This document shows, piece after piece, positions 55,342-64,000 of a stretch of 64,000 bases of DNA. This DNA comes from a bacterium UBP8_UBA817 (GTDB lineage Bacteria > Margulisbacteria > Marinamargulisbacteria > CAMDBA01). Where the stretch lies: the NCBI GenBank assembly GCA_945888995.1, contig CAMDBA010000001.1, positions 12,796 to 76,795 on the forward strand, in the 5' to 3' direction. The number at the start of each line of letters is the position of its first letter. The first letter of the stretch is position 1. The translations under genes and the position numbers were made by a program. The notes beneath the pieces are model-generated. The model was not told the DNA's origin, searched no databases, and saw only the letters and a list, made by a program, of their open reading frames with translations.

Positions 55342-57294
55342 TTAAATAAAATATCTTGCTCGGGCATTTAACATGGTTTCAAAATTACCTTGCACGCAGG
55401 TTTCTAAGAAATGTAAATATTTTGAAAGATTAGAGTTAGCGATATAAACGGTTCTACGGATATCTGCTATTTTACTTTTAAATTCTTCAACTTTTCTCCT
55501 ATGAATGGATTTAACTTCCAGTTTTGAGAAATCTCTAGTCTTTCCATTCTCCACTTCGTAAACAAAAATAAGATTAGGCTTACCCTTTACTTTATCTTGG
55601 TGTTCCGACCCAAGATCGTTAATCAAATAAATAATCTCACAGGCTAATTCTTCAATCTGTTGGATACAAGTCGCAGTTTCTAGGGTCAAATTAATTGGAA
55701 AAATCCCCAGAATTTTCCAAAGTTCTTGATACGGCCGGACTCCAATATCCACAAAGCGATATTCCATATAGTCCGATACAGAAGTTGCAGGCTCTTTTAT
55801 TATCCATTTTTTACAAAAAGACTTCATCATGTCATGTAATTGGTGATCGAATTCGGCAAGCGCTACACCATTTCGTTTGGAATAGTCCTCTAGTTCATCT
55901 CTAAACGCCTGCACTGCAGACAAAATAGATGGAGATGGAGGGTATGCGATGCTACTTTTTGTTAAAATGCCTAACATATCATCAAGGAGCGTATTAAAAC
56001 CTTCACGAGGGTGATAATCATTATAATCATTTAGAAAATAAAAAATGGTTAAATATCTTGCTGCAATTTCAAGAGCTTGCGTATTGGCTCCCTCTGGAGA
56101 ACAATATTTAAGGTAAGTAGCGATTAGCTTAGAATATACGGGTCGCATTTCAGGGAATAATTCATGCTCACTCATAAAGGTAGTTAAATAGCTCGTTAAT
56201 TCTCCAACGGTCTCATTGTTAAGAAATGCTTTGGGAAAATCATAATCTTCCTTGAAAGATTCTCCCGATATCTTTTTCTCTTCTAATGCAGCAACTGCAA
56301 ATGCGGTAGTAAGCGATTCTCCTCCAAAAAACAAGGTATCACGCGCACATCGAAAAAAAGCATCTGCAGGCCAATTACCTTCTCCTGCTTGGGCCTCGAG
56401 CAACTGGCGAGTATCGACTTCATTTGAGATCTTGTAACGGCTACATAAAATTATTCTTACCGCAAGATCTATAGGATAGGTTGTACAACCAATTCTCTGA
56501 GCAATACGCGCCTCTAGAAGGGGATCAAATCTTTCGCCGAGTTCTGGAGAAACCATAACCGCACGGGATAAAAAATATAAAAACATATCGGGCGATGGGT
56601 AATATCTGGTCCCTTCTAAATAGGCTCCATCTTCAAGCACTTTATAAACGAAATCCTCCGTCGCCTTAATTTCGTCTCCCCGACCTACTAAATGCACGAA
56701 ATACATCGCATTCGCACATACAATTGGATCAAGTCTATTTTCTCGTTCTCCCCTCGGAGGAAAATAGACTTGGATAACGCCATCCTCATTCACATTATCA
56801 ATGACATTATCTGCCACTGACCTTATAACGGCTGTGGAAGCAATCCCTTCAGTCAAAAGGATTGAAGCGCCTATTGAGGTACAATCTACATCTGCAGGAA
56901 ATTTCATTCTTAATCGCGGCTCTTCAAAAAAATAAAATAGGCCGTCTTCATGGTGAGTAGATACAAAATCTCTTAAAGAAGCCATTACTTTACCATTAAT
57001 TGAAGTTCCACTCAGTAAATCAAAAATAACTAAAGTCGAAAAAATCTCAAATGGGCTCCCCTTATGGGAGCTAAACTCTCGATTACGTGAAATTCTACCT
57101 TGAAACCCATCTGAAACACTTGCCCTCGACCGAAGAAATTTATGAGCATTTTCAACTGGAGTCATAGCCTCGCTCGTAAAATGTCGAAAAATTCCAACCA
57201 TCGGAGACAAGCTCTCTGTTCGCACAGGGGTATCTACAACTACTATCGGTGGGATTTCGCGGAGTGAAACAATTTTGTATTTGTGAGTTTTCAT
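55342..57294 (-). CDS. Putative bifunctional terpene cyclase/synthase (class II beta domain plus class I alpha domain)
   Basis: Beta: PADVDCTS (aa133-140), DPIVCAN, YYPSPDMFLYFLSR, QAGEGNW, GESLTTAFA. Alpha: NDYND (422-426), YMEYRFVDIG, NDLGSEHQD (559-567), PNLI, RY (647-648). Confidence 0.8.
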   Translation of the reverse strand: MKTHKYKIVSLREIPPIVVVDTPVRTESLSPMVGIFRHFTSEAMTPVENAHKFLRSRASVSDGFQGRISRNREFSSHKGSPFEIFSTLVIFDLLSGTSINGKVMASLRDFVSTHHEDGLFYFFEEPRLRMKFPADVDCTSIGASILLTEGIASTAVIRSVADNVIDNVNEDGVIQVYFPPRGERENRLDPIVCANAMYFVHLVGRGDEIKATEDFVYKVLEDGAYLEGTRYYPSPDMFLYFLSRAVMVSPELGERFDPLLEARIAQRIGCTTYPIDLAVRIILCSRYKISNEVDTRQLLEAQAGEGNWPADAFFRCARDTLFFGGESLTTAFAVAALEEKKISGESFKEDYDFPKAFLNNETVGELTSYLTTFMSEHELFPEMRPVYSKLIATYLKYCSPEGANTQALEIAARYLTIFYFLNDYNDYHPREGFNTLLDDMLGILTKSSIAYPPSPSILSAVQAFRDELEDYSKRNGVALAEFDHQLHDMMKSFCKKWIIKEPATSVSDYMEYRFVDIGVRPYQELWKILGIFPINLTLETATCIQQIEELACEIIYLINDLGSEHQDKVKGKPNLIFVYEVENGKTRDFSKLEVKSIHRRKVEEFKSKIADIRRTVYIANSNLSKYLHFLETCVQGNFETMLNARARYFI

Positions 57295-57667
57295 AATCTA
57301 TACACCCGAAAACCTTATGGTTGCAAAAAAGGTTAGTTAAAGTAATGAACCGGCTAACATCAATAAAACCTTAGCATTATACCTCTAAGGTTTCAACAAT
57401 TGCTAACACAACTTCGCCCCCCCCAACTTAGAACTCAAGCGAAAATTCGATAATAAACACACTCTGAGCGAGAGGCGCGTGCTTATTTATGCTCGCAATC
57501 GAAATTAAAACGGCATCCAAAGTGCATGACCGCCGAACATCGCGCGGGAGGTGATACCGGGTGGGGGTGCATTCGTAAGGCTTTTCTTTTCAATATAGTC
57601 TACCGTTATCGTAAGAGGTAGGGGGTGGGTGTAGTAATGTCCATTTCCAAAACGACCTGAAAACCGT

Positions 57668-58846
57668 ATGATTTGGAAATATATGCGACTAGATATTTCG
57701 AAAAACGATCATACCCTTTCCTCCCCTCCCAAACGTCACCTTCGCCCCGAACAAACCCGTTCAAAAGGAAAGTTATTGATTCATGGCATCGCCCATGATG
57801 ATTTTTCGTCGAATGATTATCTCGGGTATGCGTGGGATGAGCAACTGATTGCGATTGGGAAAGAGGCATTGGATACTTACGGTACGGGATCGACGGGATC
57901 TCGGCTTTTAACGGGGGACCAGTCGCTTTTTCATGAGCTGGAATCTGCGGTTGCGGACTTTAAAAACAAAGAAGCATCGCTACTCTTCAATTCGGGCTAT
58001 CAGGCCAATCTCAGCATTCTCGACACCCTCACAGGGGCGGAAGATGTGATTTTTGCGGACAAATTGGCGCATGCCAGCTTGATCGACGGCGCGCGCATGA
58101 GCGGGGCGAAGCTCATCCGATTTGCTCATAACGATGCTGGACATCTTCGGATCCTGCTCGAAAAACACCGACCGCAGTATCAAAACGCGATGATCGTCAC
58201 CGAATCCGTCTTTAGTATGGACGGAGACCGTGCACCGCTGGCGGAATTAGTCGACTTAAAATACACCTATGAGTGCGCATTATTAGTGGACGAAGCCCAT
58301 GCGACGGGCCTATTTGGGCCTACCGGGGCCGGATGGGTGGAGGCGCTTGGACTGTCAGCTGACGTGGATCTGATCATGGGTACATTCGGGAAGGCGCTGG
58401 GAAGTGCGGGGGCGTATCTGGCATGTCCGCAGGCGGTTAAAGATCAATTTATTCAAACTTGCCGCGGGTTTATTTATACGACGGCCTTACCGCCTGCCAC
58501 TGTAGCGGTGAATCTGGCAGCAATCCGGCTGGTTCAATCGGAAGCATTCCGACGAACTGAATTGATCGATCGAACCGTTTGGCTCAGAGAAGCGCTGACT
58601 CAGACAGGACTCACACTTCTGGGTGATACGCACATTATTCCGATTGTCGTGGGTGATGAATCCGACGCTCTCAGGCTCTCCGATAGGCTGAAGTCTCATC
58701 GGTTCTGGATATTGCCCATTCGATATCCCACCGTTCCTCGCGGACAGGCCCGTTTGCGCCTTTCACTCACCCACCGGCATACGCCTGAGGTACTGGAACG
58801 ATTGGTCGATGTGATGACTCAAATCTATCGGGACACACAGCCATGA
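57668..58846 (+). CDS. bioF: 8-amino-7-oxononanoate synthase
   Basis: FSSNDYLG, GSTGSRLLTG, FNSGYQAN, HASLIDG, ESVFSMDGD, DEAHATG, GTFGKALG; exact start uncertain. Confidence 0.95.
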   Translation: MIWKYMRLDISKNDHTLSSPPKRHLRPEQTRSKGKLLIHGIAHDDFSSNDYLGYAWDEQLIAIGKEALDTYGTGSTGSRLLTGDQSLFHELESAVADFKNKEASLLFNSGYQANLSILDTLTGAEDVIFADKLAHASLIDGARMSGAKLIRFAHNDAGHLRILLEKHRPQYQNAMIVTESVFSMDGDRAPLAELVDLKYTYECALLVDEAHATGLFGPTGAGWVEALGLSADVDLIMGTFGKALGSAGAYLACPQAVKDQFIQTCRGFIYTTALPPATVAVNLAAIRLVQSEAFRRTELIDRTVWLREALTQTGLTLLGDTHIIPIVVGDESDALRLSDRLKSHRFWILPIRYPTVPRGQARLRLSLTHRHTPEVLERLVDVMTQIYRDTQP

Positions 58847-59493
58847 CCGCCGCTATCCCTCTGATTGCGATACCCGGATGGGCGATGGACGAAGCGATTT
58901 TTTCCGGAGTGCAATTGCCGGGTATGGTGACGATTTTGTCCTCCGACACCATGCACTTTGAGGAGCGGTTACTCACACGTATAGCCTATCTCCAGGCACC
59001 AAAAATCGACTTACTGGGATTTTCGATGGGGGGATTTCTGGCTCAGGCATTCGCGCTGAAACACCCGGAGAAGATCAACCGGCTTTTTCTCGCGGGTATT
59101 CGGTCGCATTATCCCGACACTGCCATCATTAAACGGTATCTGACGAAAAATAAGGCGCTTTATTTGGAAAAATTCTACACGGCTTGTCTTCCGTCACCAC
59201 CGGATGCAACATTAAATGGGTTATTCTCCCGCTACATCATCGACTGGCCGATAGATGCCCTCTTACAAAGCTTGGCGTATCTGGCCCAAGCCCGCATTCA
59301 AGGTGACGTAAAACCGCCATTTGAAACGGTTCTGTTTCACGGGAAACAAGATGTCATTGCGCCGCTGTCAGAAGCTCAAACAATTGCGGAAACGCTCGGC
59401 AGCGCTCTGCATATTTTTGAGGAGGCGGGGCACTTAGTGGTCGTTGATCCGGATTTTTGTGGCACACTCGCCCGTTATCGGAGCAACCCATGA
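58843..59493 (+). CDS. bioH: Pimeloyl-ACP methyl ester esterase (BioH-like alpha/beta hydrolase)
   Basis: PGWAM, GFSMGG nucleophile elbow, QDVIAP, AGH; between bioF and bioC. Confidence 0.7.
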   Translation: MTAAIPLIAIPGWAMDEAIFSGVQLPGMVTILSSDTMHFEERLLTRIAYLQAPKIDLLGFSMGGFLAQAFALKHPEKINRLFLAGIRSHYPDTAIIKRYLTKNKALYLEKFYTACLPSPPDATLNGLFSRYIIDWPIDALLQSLAYLAQARIQGDVKPPFETVLFHGKQDVIAPLSEAQTIAETLGSALHIFEEAGHLVVVDPDFCGTLARYRSNP

Positions 59494-60254
59494 CACCCCA
59501 TCGCGTCCGCGCCAATTTCTCAAAACACGCCGCCCACTATAATGACTATGCCATCGTGCAATCCCATGTCGGTGACCGGTTATGGCAGAGTTTAGACGGA
59601 GACTCTCCCCGACACATTTTGGACCTCGGGTGCGGGACCGGCAGATGGACCGCCGGTTTAGCTGAGGCGTTTGCCGAAGCGGATATTACCGCCATCGATT
59701 TTTCAGCAGCCATGATCGAACAAGCTAAAAAAACCTTAAAAAACACGGCGATCCGCTTTGAAGTCGGAGATATTCGTGAGGTCTCGTTTGACCGGCCATT
59801 TGACTTGATCGTCTCGAATGCGTCGCTTCATTGGTGCCATCCCATTGCACCTCTCTTCAAAAAATACGCGGCCCAATTAACACCGAACGGCACAATGGCG
59901 GCCTCCCTTTACGGACCCGGGACATTTTGCGAATTAAGCGCCAGCATGGCTGAGCTCTCTGAAGCCCCGATTGAAATCAGCGCCGTGCAATTCGCATCCA
60001 TAGAGACGTTATCAGCGGCATTTCGCCCTCTTTTTTCCACCGTCGACATCTGGCAAGAAATCATCACCCAGGTCTACCCGGATCTACGCACGTTATTGCG
60101 TCATATCAAAAAAACCGGCACACAAGGAACAGGCTTGAAAAATCGAGGACTATGGACGCCACGGTTTTTGGATCGCTTATCCAAACAGTATCTTCATGAC
60201 CACGGTCAATTTCGATGCTCCTCCCAAATTTTTTATCTGAAAGGCCGCCGATGA
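59490..60254 (+). CDS. bioC: Malonyl-ACP O-methyltransferase
   Basis: FSKHAAHYNDYAIVQ, LDLGCGTG, SNASLHW, GPGTFCEL; start moved to ATG 59490. Confidence 0.9.
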   Translation: MTPHRVRANFSKHAAHYNDYAIVQSHVGDRLWQSLDGDSPRHILDLGCGTGRWTAGLAEAFAEADITAIDFSAAMIEQAKKTLKNTAIRFEVGDIREVSFDRPFDLIVSNASLHWCHPIAPLFKKYAAQLTPNGTMAASLYGPGTFCELSASMAELSEAPIEISAVQFASIETLSAAFRPLFSTVDIWQEIITQVYPDLRTLLRHIKKTGTQGTGLKNRGLWTPRFLDRLSKQYLHDHGQFRCSSQIFYLKGRR

Positions 60255-60928
60255 CCCCGATTTTTGTAACCGGCACCGACACAAACGTCGGCAAATCAAC
60301 CGTCACGGCACTGATCGCAGGCTATCTGGCGCAAAAGGGCCATACCGTGACCACCCAAAAATGGATTCAGACCGGCTGCTCTGACAAAACGTGGGATCTA
60401 GATCGGCATAATCGGTGGTTAGGTGAGGTTTATCCGCATGATGATCGGTACGCCTATGCGTTTGACCCGGCCGTATCGCCCCACCTCGCAGCGAAAGAAG
60501 CCGGTGTTGCCATCGATCCTGCTCGGATTTCAGACCAGACTCGCGCCCTCGCGACGCGCTTTGAGTACGTGATCATTGAAGGAAGTGGCGGATGGTATGT
60601 GCCCTATTCGGAGTCGGGCCTCATGGCGGACCTTGTTCAAGACTTAAACCTTCCCGTTTTATTGGTCGCCGCTAACCGCCTTGGCGCGATCAACCATACG
60701 CTTCTCACCATCGAATCTATTCAAAATCGCAGACTTCCCTTTATCGGCACACTCTTCACCTCACCTTCTGCGAACGAAAACCCGGCGGTTTCGGCCGATA
60801 ATCCCGCGATTATCGCCTCTATTTCGGGCACAAAAACAATCGGAATCCTCCCATTTTGCACCTCGGAGGAACAGCTCTCTCACGCCTTTTCCAGTATTGG
60901 TGACAGGCTTTACAAAACCCTTCGTTAA
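60251..60928 (+). CDS. bioD: Dethiobiotin synthase
   Basis: FVTGTDTNVGKS, QTG, SPHLAA, IEGSGG, LGAINHTLLT; start moved to ATG 60251. Confidence 0.95.
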   Translation: MTPIFVTGTDTNVGKSTVTALIAGYLAQKGHTVTTQKWIQTGCSDKTWDLDRHNRWLGEVYPHDDRYAYAFDPAVSPHLAAKEAGVAIDPARISDQTRALATRFEYVIIEGSGGWYVPYSESGLMADLVQDLNLPVLLVAANRLGAINHTLLTIESIQNRRLPFIGTLFTSPSANENPAVSADNPAIIASISGTKTIGILPFCTSEEQLSHAFSSIGDRLYKTLR

Positions 60929-61006
60929 ATTTCCTGACTACCTAGTCAGCTTCTCACATGCTATCCTAACGTAAGAGTTTTCAAACGATTGGGAGAGATA
61001 CTACAT

Positions 61007-62122
61007 ATGAAAAATAAAGAACGCAAGCTCTATAAGATTGGACATCTCACCAAAATATTGGGAATTACCCATCGTTCGATCCGCTACTATGATCAATACG
61101 GATTGCTTCCTCACGTTAAACGAAGTTCCGGTAATGTGCGGCTATTTGATGAAGAAGATGTCGAGCTCATCAAAAAAATCCGAAAAATGCAAAGCGAAGA
61201 ATTTCTTCCCTTAAACGTTATTAAAGAGAAATTATTTGGCAAAAAATCAGATATCACGTCGGGAGATAAAGCGATTGTCACCGATAGTACCGCGCTTCTA
61301 TCTGAAGCAGTGAAAGCCGCGGCTCCAATTCATATCTTGCCGCTCTCCATTTCCATCGAAGGACAAACTTACCTGGACGGCATCGATATTACGCCGAGCG
61401 AACTCTGGGATAAAAGCCAGCAGCTTGAAATCGATACCCTGACCAGCCCACCTGCCGAAGATGTCTTTGTTAAAAAATATCTGGAACTTCACCAACAAGG
61501 TATTAAAGAAATTTATTCGATTCATCTATCATCCAAATTATCCGCCACCTACCAGATCGCACTTCAGGCGTCCCACAAAGTCGCCGACAAAGTCAAAGTC
61601 GTCGTTATCGATTCAAAATCCACGGGAGCCGGACTGGGATTATTCGTTCAACTGATCGGCGAAGCAATTCACGAACAAAATTCCAGCAAAGAAATCCAGC
61701 TTCTGATCTCAAAAAATTTACCGCTCATCTTCGATATGATGGTCGTAAACTCGCTCCAGTTTCTGGCCAATAAAGGCAAGCTATCCGATCTGAGCCCGAC
61801 TCAAATGACGTTTATGGGCAAGCTCTTTGAGCTCAAACCCGTTATGACGCTCAAAAACGGGGAACTTGAGATCCTGGAATGCTCTAAAACCAAACAAGAT
61901 GCAGTCGACCTGATGATCGACTTACTGGACCGGGAAATTCAATCCCGTGGCGGCTACGTCAAACAGATTTCGGTTATTTACAATTATTTATATGGCGAAG
62001 CCCTGGAAATCATTAACCGCATTAAAAGCAGCTACCCGTATATTCCGCTTTATATGGACGAAGGCAGCTCGATTCTTTCGGTATATGTCGGAAACGAATC
62101 CATAGGCATCTCTATTATTTAA
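61007..62122 (+). CDS. MerR-type HTH fused to a DegV (FakB-like fatty-acid-binding) domain
   Basis: N-terminal YKIGHL..LGITHRSIRYYDQYGLL..RSSGNVRLF; DegV IVTDST, TSPP, LSSKLSATY, IDSKS, LKPVM. Confidence 0.85.
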   Translation: MKNKERKLYKIGHLTKILGITHRSIRYYDQYGLLPHVKRSSGNVRLFDEEDVELIKKIRKMQSEEFLPLNVIKEKLFGKKSDITSGDKAIVTDSTALLSEAVKAAAPIHILPLSISIEGQTYLDGIDITPSELWDKSQQLEIDTLTSPPAEDVFVKKYLELHQQGIKEIYSIHLSSKLSATYQIALQASHKVADKVKVVVIDSKSTGAGLGLFVQLIGEAIHEQNSSKEIQLLISKNLPLIFDMMVVNSLQFLANKGKLSDLSPTQMTFMGKLFELKPVMTLKNGELEILECSKTKQDAVDLMIDLLDREIQSRGGYVKQISVIYNYLYGEALEIINRIKSSYPYIPLYMDEGSSILSVYVGNESIGISII

Positions 62123-62139
62123 TCATCGTCGTGGAAACG

Positions 62140-62165
62140 AGAGACGCGATTTATCGCGTCTCTAC
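62140..62165 (-). repeat. GTAG-type REP palindrome between convergent genes
   Basis: Minus strand GTAG-AGACGCGAT-AA-ATCGCGTCTCT; its TAG is the stop codon of the ligase gene. Confidence 0.75.
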
Positions 62166-62767
62166 AATCTTTCTTTGATAGCGGTTCGTATCTCATCAAT
62201 GAACCGCTTCTCGGCCGGAATGCCCCGACTAAAAAAGTCCCCGTAGGCGGCCTGTAAATCGGCAAAAGTCAGGCAGTTGTCATAGAGATGAATAATCCCC
62301 TGAATGATAAATCGATATCGCTGTTTTCTGAGCGTCAGAGCCACGATTTTTTCGTTTTCATAATAGAGCTCGAATGGGTTGTGATAGGTGTTGCAGAAGT
62401 CCAAATTCTGAGGCCCTGACGCAGCTGATGGCATAAGCGCAATCCCACAATCCGAAAAAGCCGCGGCAAAGAGATCCGAAAACCATCCCATTTTCCCTCG
62501 AAGGGATTTTGGGAACAAGTGATCATCTAGGCCGGCGCTACAACTAAATACCAAGTCTCCCTGACTGTGAAAAACAATCCCGCCTCCGGTAAGTCGCTTG
62601 GCATGATCAATCGCCATTAAGTCTTCCGGCAGCGTTTGCTTGTAACTATAGGTTAGTCCCGGTGTTTGCCAGTCATAGAGCCTGAAGCACCGGTCTGAGG
62701 CATGAAGGAGCGAGTCATCGAATGCCATATTCTCGGCAGCGGTCGGGAATGATATCTCACTCACCAT
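62162..62767 (-). CDS. Lipoate-protein ligase family protein (LipM/LplA catalytic domain)
   Basis: ENMAFDDSLL, RLYDW..PGLTYSYKQ, KRLTGGGIVFH, NFC-like LDFC, EKIVA. Confidence 0.8.
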   Translation of the reverse strand: MVSEISFPTAAENMAFDDSLLHASDRCFRLYDWQTPGLTYSYKQTLPEDLMAIDHAKRLTGGGIVFHSQGDLVFSCSAGLDDHLFPKSLRGKMGWFSDLFAAAFSDCGIALMPSAASGPQNLDFCNTYHNPFELYYENEKIVALTLRKQRYRFIIQGIIHLYDNCLTFADLQAAYGDFFSRGIPAEKRFIDEIRTAIKERL

Positions 62768-63459
62768 CAGAGCAACGGCGTTCGCACACGCGGCGTCTCA
62801 TCATCGTCTTCATCGGCATCGTCATCCAAGATCAGTTTACGCGGAATACTAAACGCGCCAACCGCAAAAAACGCTGCTTCGATAGACCGGACTTTGACAG
62901 CCCGGGGCGTGACTTGCTTCACACCAAGTGTGTTTAGCTCGGCCTTAGCGAGATACCCTTCGACATGTTGGTCTACGATTTTTTTCAGGTCGTCTACTTT
63001 TTGAGGTGAAATAGTCGTCGTATCCTCGGCTTGAAGAAACGTTTCCATGACCAGGTCGACGATCGCTTTTATTTTTTCGTCCGGCAGATCTACTTTCACC
63101 GATTTAGTCAGCATCGTCTTCAGATCGGCTAACAAATTCAGCTTATACTTAAACTTCGCAAAAAACGCGAGCTGAAGCTCTGAGAGGAGGTCCTGAATCC
63201 GACCCAGATGACTAAATCCGAAAAAGATAATCAGCTCCAACAACCGGAACATCTTTAGTTTCGCGCTGCCCTCCGAAATCAAGCCGTTACGGATTTGATA
63301 AATCAGAACTTCGACCAGCCGCATGACTGCCAACAGATTTTTATTCAGGACCGCGAGACGAATCTTCTCGAGGTCCTGAGGCGTTACAACACCATAGCCC
63401 GGTGTCTTGTCGGGATCAAAGCCATTAACTCGGCGGATCTTCTCCGGAGGGTAGCCCAT
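62767..63459 (-). CDS. Hypothetical protein (helical, acidic tail)
   Basis: 230-aa ORF packed between neighbours on the same strand; no family recognised. Confidence 0.7.
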   Translation of the reverse strand: MGYPPEKIRRVNGFDPDKTPGYGVVTPQDLEKIRLAVLNKNLLAVMRLVEVLIYQIRNGLISEGSAKLKMFRLLELIIFFGFSHLGRIQDLLSELQLAFFAKFKYKLNLLADLKTMLTKSVKVDLPDEKIKAIVDLVMETFLQAEDTTTISPQKVDDLKKIVDQHVEGYLAKAELNTLGVKQVTPRAVKVRSIEAAFFAVGAFSIPRKLILDDDADEDDDETPRVRTPLL

Positions 63460-63468
63460 GGAAGTAGG

Positions 63469-64000
63469 CTACTGCATCAGACGACCGTTCCTAATCAATA
63501 CTTTGACGACATTGACAAAAGAGCCTTCTGCAGAGCTCACCACCACCCGAATCAAATACTCATCGTCCTGAACTTTTTTCTTTGTAGTAGAGGTTAAATC
63601 CCAATTAACCTGATAATCCCCGGCCGGCATGATTTTTTCCGCAACCAGGTCTTTTACTTTCATTCCATATGCATCCCGGACATAGACACCGACGACGTAC
63701 TCGGCATCCGATTTTCCCCCTTTAAGGACATAATGCGTCACCATGCCGTTCGGCGCATCAGACGCGGTCACAGAAACACTCAACGGTTCCGCTACAATCG
63801 AAGGAGCGGGCGTCGGTTCAGTGACAGGGGCAGGAGTCGCCGGAATAGACTCACTAACGGTCGCGACTTTGATGGGCTGATCTTCGATTACAACGGACGG
63901 AGTCACCACCGGCGCTTCGATAATCGTCGGGGTCACGACAATCGGCTCAGGTTGAACCGCTGCTACCGGCTCGGTTGGCGCAACCGGTGGCATCGGAACG
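63469..64000 (-). CDS. Protein with Pro/Thr-rich linker and C-terminal FlgD-like Ig domain (partial at window edge)
   Basis: VYVRDAYGMKVKDLV...AGDYQVNWD...DDEYLIRV is typical of FlgD_ig; 5' end lies outside the window. Confidence 0.65.
   Translation of the reverse strand, partial: VPMPPVAPTEPVAAVQPEPIVVTPTIIEAPVVTPSVVIEDQPIKVATVSESIPATPAPVTEPTPAPSIVAEPLSVSVTASDAPNGMVTHYVLKGGKSDAEYVVGVYVRDAYGMKVKDLVAEKIMPAGDYQVNWDLTSTTKKKVQDDEYLIRVVVSSAEGSFVNVVKVLIRNGRLMQ

Follow-up and report, generated by a model that had tools for sequence, protein, structure and literature searches.

In this study, we analysed a 64,000-nucleotide stretch from the bacterium UBP8_UBA817 (Margulisbacteria; assembly GCA_945888995.1, contig CAMDBA010000001.1, positions 12,796 to 76,795 of the forward strand), hereafter called the window. 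It contains a gene in which a MerR-type winged helix-turn-helix (HTH) head is joined to a DegV domain, and this gene stands between a biotin gene string (bioF, a bioH-like gene, bioC and bioD) and a gene for a protein of the LplA/LipB catalytic fold (Table 1). An earlier note on this DNA had described these flanks correctly and had proposed a one-component regulator that links fatty-acid or acyl-phosphate pools to the neighbouring biotin and lipoate genes. Here, the architecture and conservation of the protein were found to fit a regulator, but the biotin and lipoate link failed.

Table 1. Features of the MerR-DegV fusion locus (positions are those of the window)
Feature	Position	Strand	Basis and remarks
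MerR-HTH/DegV fusion gene, complete	61007..62122	+	Stop-free open reading frame, Pfam, NCBIfam, AlphaFold2 (AF2) model
Shine-Dalgarno-like GGGAGAG	60991..60997	+	9 nt before ATG 61007; read from the sequence
MerR-type winged HTH, residues 9-76	61031..61234	+	Pfam MerR_1, invariant residues, AF2, Foldseek
Short variable linker, residues 77-88	61235..61270	+	Unconserved in the alignment; predicted local distance difference test (pLDDT) averages 84 in the block 81-90
DegV/FakB-like lipid-binding fold, residues 89-371	61271..62119	+	Pfam, PDB 4x9x, Foldseek, residue mapping
bioF, bioH-like hydrolase, bioC, bioD	57668..60928	+	Co-directional; ends 78 nt before the fusion gene; context only
bioF	57668-58846	+	TIGR00858, 418 bits
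Short alpha/beta hydrolase in the bioH position, 216 aa	58843-59493	+	Overlaps bioF and bioC
bioC	59457-60254	+	TIGR02072, 177 bits
bioD	60215-60928	+	TIGR00347, 140 bits
LplA/LipB-catalytic-fold protein, 201 aa	62162-62767	-	Convergent; PF21948, E 8e-10, 39 bits; context only
Perfect palindrome CTGACTAccTAGTCAG, 7+7 (CTGACTA and TAGTCAG around cc)	60934..60949	+	Just past the bioD stop, 58 nt before the start codon

Direct translation of the fusion gene gave an uninterrupted frame of 371 amino acids plus the stop codon. ATG 61007 is the likelier start because GGGAGAG lies 9 nt upstream of it and the N-termini of homologues align there; TTG 60989 is the alternative. In Pfam, the head was matched by MerR_1 (PF13411; residues 9-76, E 7.4e-15, 55 bits, cut-off 21.6) and MerR (PF00376; residues 10-47, E 1.7e-09), and the rest of the protein by DegV (PF02645; residues 89-371, E 8.1e-51, 173 bits, cut-off 27), the last match spanning positions 3-278 of the 280 in the profile. 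NCBIfam also assigned a DegV domain (TIGR00762, 185 bits vs a cut-off of 99.7). The AF2 model, for which the family alignment was supplied, reached a pLDDT of 93.5 and a predicted template modelling score (pTM) of 0.91; this confidence, high for a two-domain protein, suggests that the HTH head is docked on the DegV domain. Thus, the fusion and the full DegV domain described in the earlier note both hold, but the MerR part is not complete in the way it had implied, in that the coiled-coil helix of MerR proteins is missing.

The AF2 model of the head contains helices at residues 11-18, 22-30, 49-64 and 69-77 and a beta wing at 37-47. The last helix ends at residue 77 in the full-length model and at residue 81 in a model of the head alone (69-81), with the first DegV strand following from residue 88. 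Because the final head helix is so short and the DegV strand begins so soon after it, the long alpha-5 antiparallel coiled-coil helix of MerR dimers is predicted to be absent from both models. When the isolated head was searched with Foldseek, the best match was the GlnR-DNA structure (4r4e; template modelling (TM) scores 0.78/0.81), followed by NmlR, MtaN, CadR, TnrA and CarH. At the sequence level, the head matched GlnR by phmmer (E 3.6e-06), and significant matches were also obtained to the heads of CadR, ZntR and CueR. In an alignment of 69 members, all 13 invariant columns fall within residues 10-69, the invariant residues of the head including K10, I11, R23, R26, Y27, Y28, K38, R39, G42, R45, L46 and D51, and mean identity to the protein of the window is 70% for the head vs 39% for the DegV part. 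Therefore, judged from sequence conservation, DNA binding with a conserved operator appears to be the best supported part of the regulator reading.

The DegV part is a clear relative of the fatty-acid-binding FakB proteins. It matched FakB2 of PDB 4x9x by phmmer (E 1e-31), and its target-normalised Foldseek TM-scores to more than 30 DegV/FakB structures were 0.82-0.90; most of the matched DegV-family structures are described as fatty-acid-bound or lipid-binding in their entry titles. The structural motifs TDS, HLSSxLSxT and IDSKS are retained in the fusions. In FakB, T61, S93 and H264 hold the carboxylate of the fatty acid, and R170 lies at the tunnel mouth, where the surrounding loop docks FakA and the R170A change abolishes fatty acid kinase (Fak) activity (PMC10848957). 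We mapped these residues by the phmmer alignment to 4x9x and by a MAFFT alignment of 88 fusions and 30 standalone DegV proteins. T61 corresponds to T146 of the protein of the window (T in 39/88 fusions and 30/30 standalone proteins) and S93 to S179 (S in 71/88 and 30/30, respectively). The tunnel-mouth Arg, present in 30/30 standalone proteins, corresponds to K258 and is not conserved in the fusions, in which the six commonest residues are I, K, V, N, D and F; an Arg within two columns of this position was found in just 6/88. The His (H264/H266; H in 27/30 standalone proteins) corresponds to Y360, the fusions having Y in 52/88, F in 10/88 and H in 2/88. The fusions have also lost the GGR motif, which is followed by an insertion of 6-10 residues, and this remodelled R170 loop is the least confident stretch of the model. 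The protein of the window thus departs from FakB on four counts: the Thr-Ser-His carboxylate network is incomplete (T146 and S179 kept, Tyr360 for His), the tunnel-mouth Arg is replaced, FakA was not found in its genome, and its score with the FakB1 equivalog NF038249 is 99.2 bits, below the cut-off of 350. Eight positions (W134, Y170, G207, K236, E310, R314, Y317 and Y325) are conserved in the fusions and not in the 30 standalone proteins; by their pattern in the alignment, they may mark a site of contact with the head or of some new interaction.

FakA was sought through its Dak2 domain in 146 species-representative genomes of the phylum. There was no match in the genome of the window, whose assembly is 76% complete, and none in 144/146 of the phylum genomes, the whole class of the window included; control genomes gave the expected results. 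Of the two genomes with Dak2, G112 carries fakA and fakB as an ordinary pair of adjacent genes and lacks the fusion. Because FakA is lacking in the lineage, the equivalent of R170 is replaced and the FakA loop is remodelled, formation of an acyl phosphate on the DegV domain of the fusion seems very unlikely, and the acyl-phosphate sensing proposed in the earlier note is unlikely too. A second DegV-containing architecture was noticed in relatives, consisting of proteins of 547-594 aa such as that encoded at L120:1305-3068 (G050:C34). Similar open reading frames occur in G004, G006, G049 and G051-G056, and none was found in the genome of the window. At the C-terminus, ~220 residues are matched by the second half of the DegV profile (E 1.5e-23), and the N-terminal ~365 residues have no Pfam match. 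As no Dak2 domain turned up in their genomes, these proteins are not FakA.

The fusion is a family feature of this phylum. A search of 5.8 billion proteins yielded ~90 clusters with the MerR plus DegV architecture, with lengths of 344-427 aa and identities of 29-63% to the protein of the window, all named sources of which are Candidatus Margulisiibacteriota or metagenome-assembled genomes (MAGs) labelled only as 'bacterium'. The ESM Atlas cluster of the fusion is likewise commonest in Margulisiibacteriota. Fusion matches were present in 71 of the 146 species-representative genomes, and nearly all families of the class of the window carry one, mostly at full length; in a pattern scan of the GTDB species representatives, full-length copies were found only in Marinamargulisbacteria-type genomes and a few oddly labelled MAGs. 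Since the same architecture recurs in ~90 clusters, with full-length matches in dozens of species-representative genomes, the fusion is genuine and no assembly artefact. Apparent fusions in cultured Firmicutes were rejected, the Fictibacillus and Paucisalibacillus matches being an ordinary MerR protein of 249 aa and a standalone DegV protein of 298 aa. In a tree of the DegV parts, with the 30 nearest standalone DegV proteins as the outgroup, all 88 fusions grouped in a single clade (support 1.0). This monophyly indicates, within the limited sampling of that outgroup, that a single fusion event lies behind the family. In agreement with the earlier note, which knew of no characterised example, full-text literature searches found no paper on a MerR-DegV architecture.

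Taken together, we think it moderately probable that the fusion is a FakA-independent, lipid-binding one-component transcription regulator. Sensing would here fall to a FakB-type DegV domain, and DNA binding to a short MerR-type winged HTH that has no coiled coil, in a family that would have been inherited across Margulisiibacteriota after one fusion event. Without FakA, and with the Arg and loop that FakA uses gone, the DegV domain would no longer be the substrate carrier of a kinase. Ser179, Thr146 (in the subclade of the window) and the Tyr that replaces His remain where FakB holds the carboxylate of the fatty acid; the DegV fold, its motifs and these polar residues are compatible with fatty-acid binding without phosphorylation. 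A free fatty acid or a related lipid that fills the acyl-chain tunnel could then shift the presentation of the docked HTH or the oligomeric state, and DNA binding would change, a kind of control by the ligand domain that would resemble that of CarH.

Several observations weigh against such a lipid-binding regulator. FakB proteins are monomers (PMC10848957), and the head is without the coiled coil through which MerR proteins dimerise; a two-copy homodimer prediction with the family alignment scored 0.26 and 0.24 vs a mark of 0.42 and carries no weight either way. In more distant family members the Thr and Tyr of the carboxylate site give way to hydrophobic residues. Some families have a DegV part that Pfam no longer detects, next to a head that is still 43-64% identical. 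Because these members lose the polar site residues as well as a Pfam-detectable DegV domain, the sensor could bind a ligand other than a fatty acid or act mainly as a scaffold. Moreover, with an assembly 76% complete, the absence of FakA from the genome of the window itself leans on the phylum-wide pattern. Finally, dyad, Gibbs and box tests of the regions upstream of the fusion genes (see below) did not yield a conserved operator.

The fusion can be compared with several characterised systems. FakB/DegV proteins (Staphylococcus aureus FakB2, 4X9X, and FakB1, 5UTO; Thermotoga maritima TM841, 1MGP) share the two-lobed fold of the C-terminal 283 residues, the three motifs, the carboxylate Ser and, in the subclade of the window, the carboxylate Thr. 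They differ in that the fusion has a DNA-binding domain, no FakA partner in its lineage, Lys258 or a non-basic residue for R170, a lengthened loop, Tyr or Phe for His266, and a score far under the FakB1 cut-off. Canonical regulators such as BmrR, BrlR, CueR, CadR and SoxR likewise join a MerR HTH at the N-terminus to an effector-binding part at the C-terminus, but their dimer and the distortion of DNA depend on the long alpha-5 antiparallel coiled coil, which the fusion does not have; no long-spacer (19-20 bp) promoter with an operator was identified. Closer in layout are CarH/LitR, with a coiled-coil-less MerR-type head, a short linker and a large small-molecule-binding domain, and by analogy the ligand domain of the fusion, and not a coiled coil, would govern oligomerisation and DNA binding. 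On the other hand, the CarH/LitR sensor is a B12-binding Rossmann domain with a helical bundle, whereas that of the fusion is DegV, with no B12-binding family among its Pfam matches and no sign of light sensing. CarH was met among the Foldseek matches of the head, and the CarH model NF052513 scored 25 bits vs a cut-off of 400, on the head only. The likeness lies in a possible way of working, and not in membership.

GlnR and TnrA have heads of ~80 residues without a coiled coil, like that of the fusion, and bind DNA as dimers; their C-terminal tail is bound by glutamine synthetase, whereas the head of the fusion is followed by a 283-residue DegV domain, and the TnrA model NF053740 gave 25 bits against a cut-off of 140. 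FadR, DesT, FabT, FabR and FapR sense acyl-CoA, acyl-ACP (acyl carrier protein) or malonyl-CoA (CoA, coenzyme A) through GntR, TetR, MarR or DeoR-type scaffolds; the fusion would have the same role, coupling lipid status to transcription, if its ligand is a fatty acid. We know of no fatty-acid-responsive regulator that uses the DegV fold or a free fatty acid in a FakB-type tunnel. A precedent for an EDD-fold ligand binder that serves as a transcription sensor and not as a kinase subunit is DhaQ-DhaS of Lactococcus lactis, in which the sensor of the switch is a DhaK paralogue (PMC7590123; PDB 2iu4 was among the Foldseek matches). Unlike the fusion, that system comprises two separate proteins, the DNA-binding one being of the TetR type, and its ligand is dihydroxyacetone.

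To our knowledge, DegV/FakB proteins are known only as carriers of fatty acid kinase, and many DegV proteins occur in FakA-less genomes without an assigned role. In the fusion, the DegV domain is covalently linked to a strongly conserved DNA-binding head, and FakA is missing from the lineage. This offers a testable non-kinase role, that of a ligand sensor, and makes the fusion a candidate regulator for uncultured Margulisbacteria. A more far-reaching form of the proposal is that the family is an unrecognised class of direct free-fatty-acid or membrane-lipid sensors and the lipid-homeostasis regulator of the phylum, which we put forward tentatively and regard as somewhat unlikely. If it is true, a FakB module that has lost its kinase partner may still load lipid from the membrane and gate a MerR-like head, and the reading of a lipid through the DegV tunnel would be new among known transcription factors. 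As the protein is small and soluble-looking and its model is of high confidence, laboratory study should be straightforward.

The most serious alternative is that the DegV domain carries no lipid and serves oligomerisation, scaffolding or partner docking (much as GlnR/TnrA are controlled by glutamine synthetase), in a regulator of amino-acid or nitrogen metabolism that acts with an AsnC/Lrp regulator and an aminotransferase. This possibility, which we consider unlikely, draws in part on the gene neighbourhoods. For eight distant homologues, long contigs showed the surroundings of the gene. In five, genes for an AsnC/Lrp regulator, a class-I aminotransferase and CvpA come next, and three of these five have a thioredoxin gene just upstream. 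The AsnC regulator, usually together with the aminotransferase, lies directly downstream of the fusion in 21 of 29 species-representative loci (7 are without it and 1 is truncated); CvpA usually comes after them, and thioredoxin is often found on the upstream side. The gaps between fusion, AsnC and aminotransferase genes are 9-35 nt or the genes overlap, which suggests one transcript, and loci with longer flanks show the same order. The aminotransferase is of the NCBIfam PRK07682 type (aspartate/alanine class) and no BioF-like oxoamine synthase. Judged from this synteny, the ancestral place of the fusion appears to be that of the first gene in a tight string with AsnC/Lrp, class-I aminotransferase and CvpA. 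The likeness of the isolated head to GlnR/TnrA, the fast evolution of the DegV part with loss of polar head-group residues in distant members, and the positions W134, K236, E310, R314, Y317 and Y325 conserved in the fusions but not in the 30 standalone proteins, which suggest a new surface, would all suit a scaffold. However, the two-lobed DegV fold is whole and modelled with high confidence, it superposes well on lipid-loaded structures, and Ser179 and the three motifs are retained. TnrA/GlnR boxes (TGTNAN7TNACA) are not enriched, occurring in 5/30 upstream regions vs 4.4 expected, and a gene order common to one phylum may reflect inheritance and not joint function.

It is considerably less probable that the fusion responds to pools of fatty acids or acyl phosphates and controls the bioFHCD and lipoate-ligase genes beside it. 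The arrangement in the window is certainly attractive, since the fusion comes close behind bioD on one strand without a clear terminator in the bioD-fusion spacer, converges with the LplA/LipB-fold gene, and is preceded by a perfect palindrome in that spacer; moreover, pimelate synthesis by BioC/BioH is known to draw on fatty-acid synthesis. Among the loci compared, this arrangement is confined to the genome of the window. No bio or LplA-like gene was found near the fusion in any of the 29 species-representative loci (1.5-kb flanks) or of ~25 loci with 5-8-kb flanks. The earlier note had named homologue neighbourhoods without a tie to lipid cofactors as a finding that would refute its proposal, and this is what these loci show. 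In the closest relative (63% identity), the fusion precedes ABC permease genes and the upstream DNA could not be aligned with that of the window. The genome of the window does contain the genes for AsnC/Lrp, class-I aminotransferase, two tandem thymidylate-kinase-like proteins and CvpA, on another contig (C5:14183-17815), and the same string follows the fusion in a 52%-identical relative. The string, also located at L123:7130-10656, is conserved and comes directly after the fusion in relatives. As the bio neighbourhood is unique to this genome and the AsnC string lies elsewhere in it, the place behind bioD is best read, from gene order, as a recent, lineage-specific relocation. Acyl phosphate could also hardly be made without FakA and the Arg, and the palindrome is unique and unconserved. 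These results correct an attractive but unsupported link of the fusion to biotin and lipoate cofactor genes. We also observed that the AsnC-to-CvpA string on C5 stands alone, behind divergent genes.

That the protein is an ordinary FakB with an N-terminal extension, activating fatty acids for phospholipid synthesis, is hardly credible: its top sequence and structure matches are indeed FakB1 and FakB2, but its NF038249 score is far too low, FakA is wanting in 144/146 phylum genomes, the Arg is replaced and the FakA-docking loop remodelled, and the supposed extension is better conserved than the rest of the protein.

With regard to the upstream sequences, CTGACTAccTAGTCAG is the sole perfect copy of the palindrome in the 1.04-Mb assembly, where it has no family of near-copies, and it was not found upstream of homologues, the closest relative included. 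The RNA fold of the bioD-fusion spacer was insignificant (z -0.89); the palindrome could be a putative protein-binding site. A consensus scan of 57200-62900 for promoters and terminators gave nothing informative near the gene and no promoter-like site in the spacer. Counts of exact dyads in 30 non-redundant upstream regions returned A/T runs only and no conserved dyad, and a palindromic Gibbs sampler reached an information content of 7.3, hardly more than the 6.4-6.7 of shuffles. Palindromic octamers with an ACGT core (TNACGTNA and TGACGTCA-like) lie upstream of one quarter to one third of the fusion genes, more than in shuffles (carriers are L005, L007, L016, L033, L034, L037 and L038), and the window has a copy, TAACGTAA, at 60967-60974. 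TNACGTNA was present upstream of 7/29 genes vs 1.1 expected and TGACG of 11/29 vs 4.0 expected, the pattern having been derived from the same data; it is a post hoc lead to an operator only.

Some minor observations concern the flanking genes. The hydrolase in the bioH position resembles BioH (30 bits, cut-off 207) and BioV (24 bits, cut-off 150) only weakly, and may be a divergent pimeloyl-ACP methyl esterase. For the convergent gene, the 'lipoate/octanoyl ligase' label is a fold-level call only, because PF21948 matches but no NCBIfam equivalog does. It is followed on the same strand, up to position 63993, by genes for two proteins of 230 and 174 aa with no Pfam match above the curated cut-offs; their sole NCBIfam match is a weak one to FlgD (18 bits, cut-off 230). 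In other genomes, no counterpart of the 201-, 230- or 174-aa protein lies near the fusion gene. At least two loci (L003 and L040) have a fatty-acid-synthesis cluster upstream of the fusion, which is not a general arrangement. In the assembly of the window, no match to PlsX, FabH, FabD, AcpP or FabF was found by tblastn or with the PF02504 profile. The window nevertheless has bioC and a bioH-like gene, and BioC/BioH pimelate synthesis depends on type II fatty-acid synthesis; the fatty-acid-synthesis cluster probably sits in the missing ~24% of the genome.

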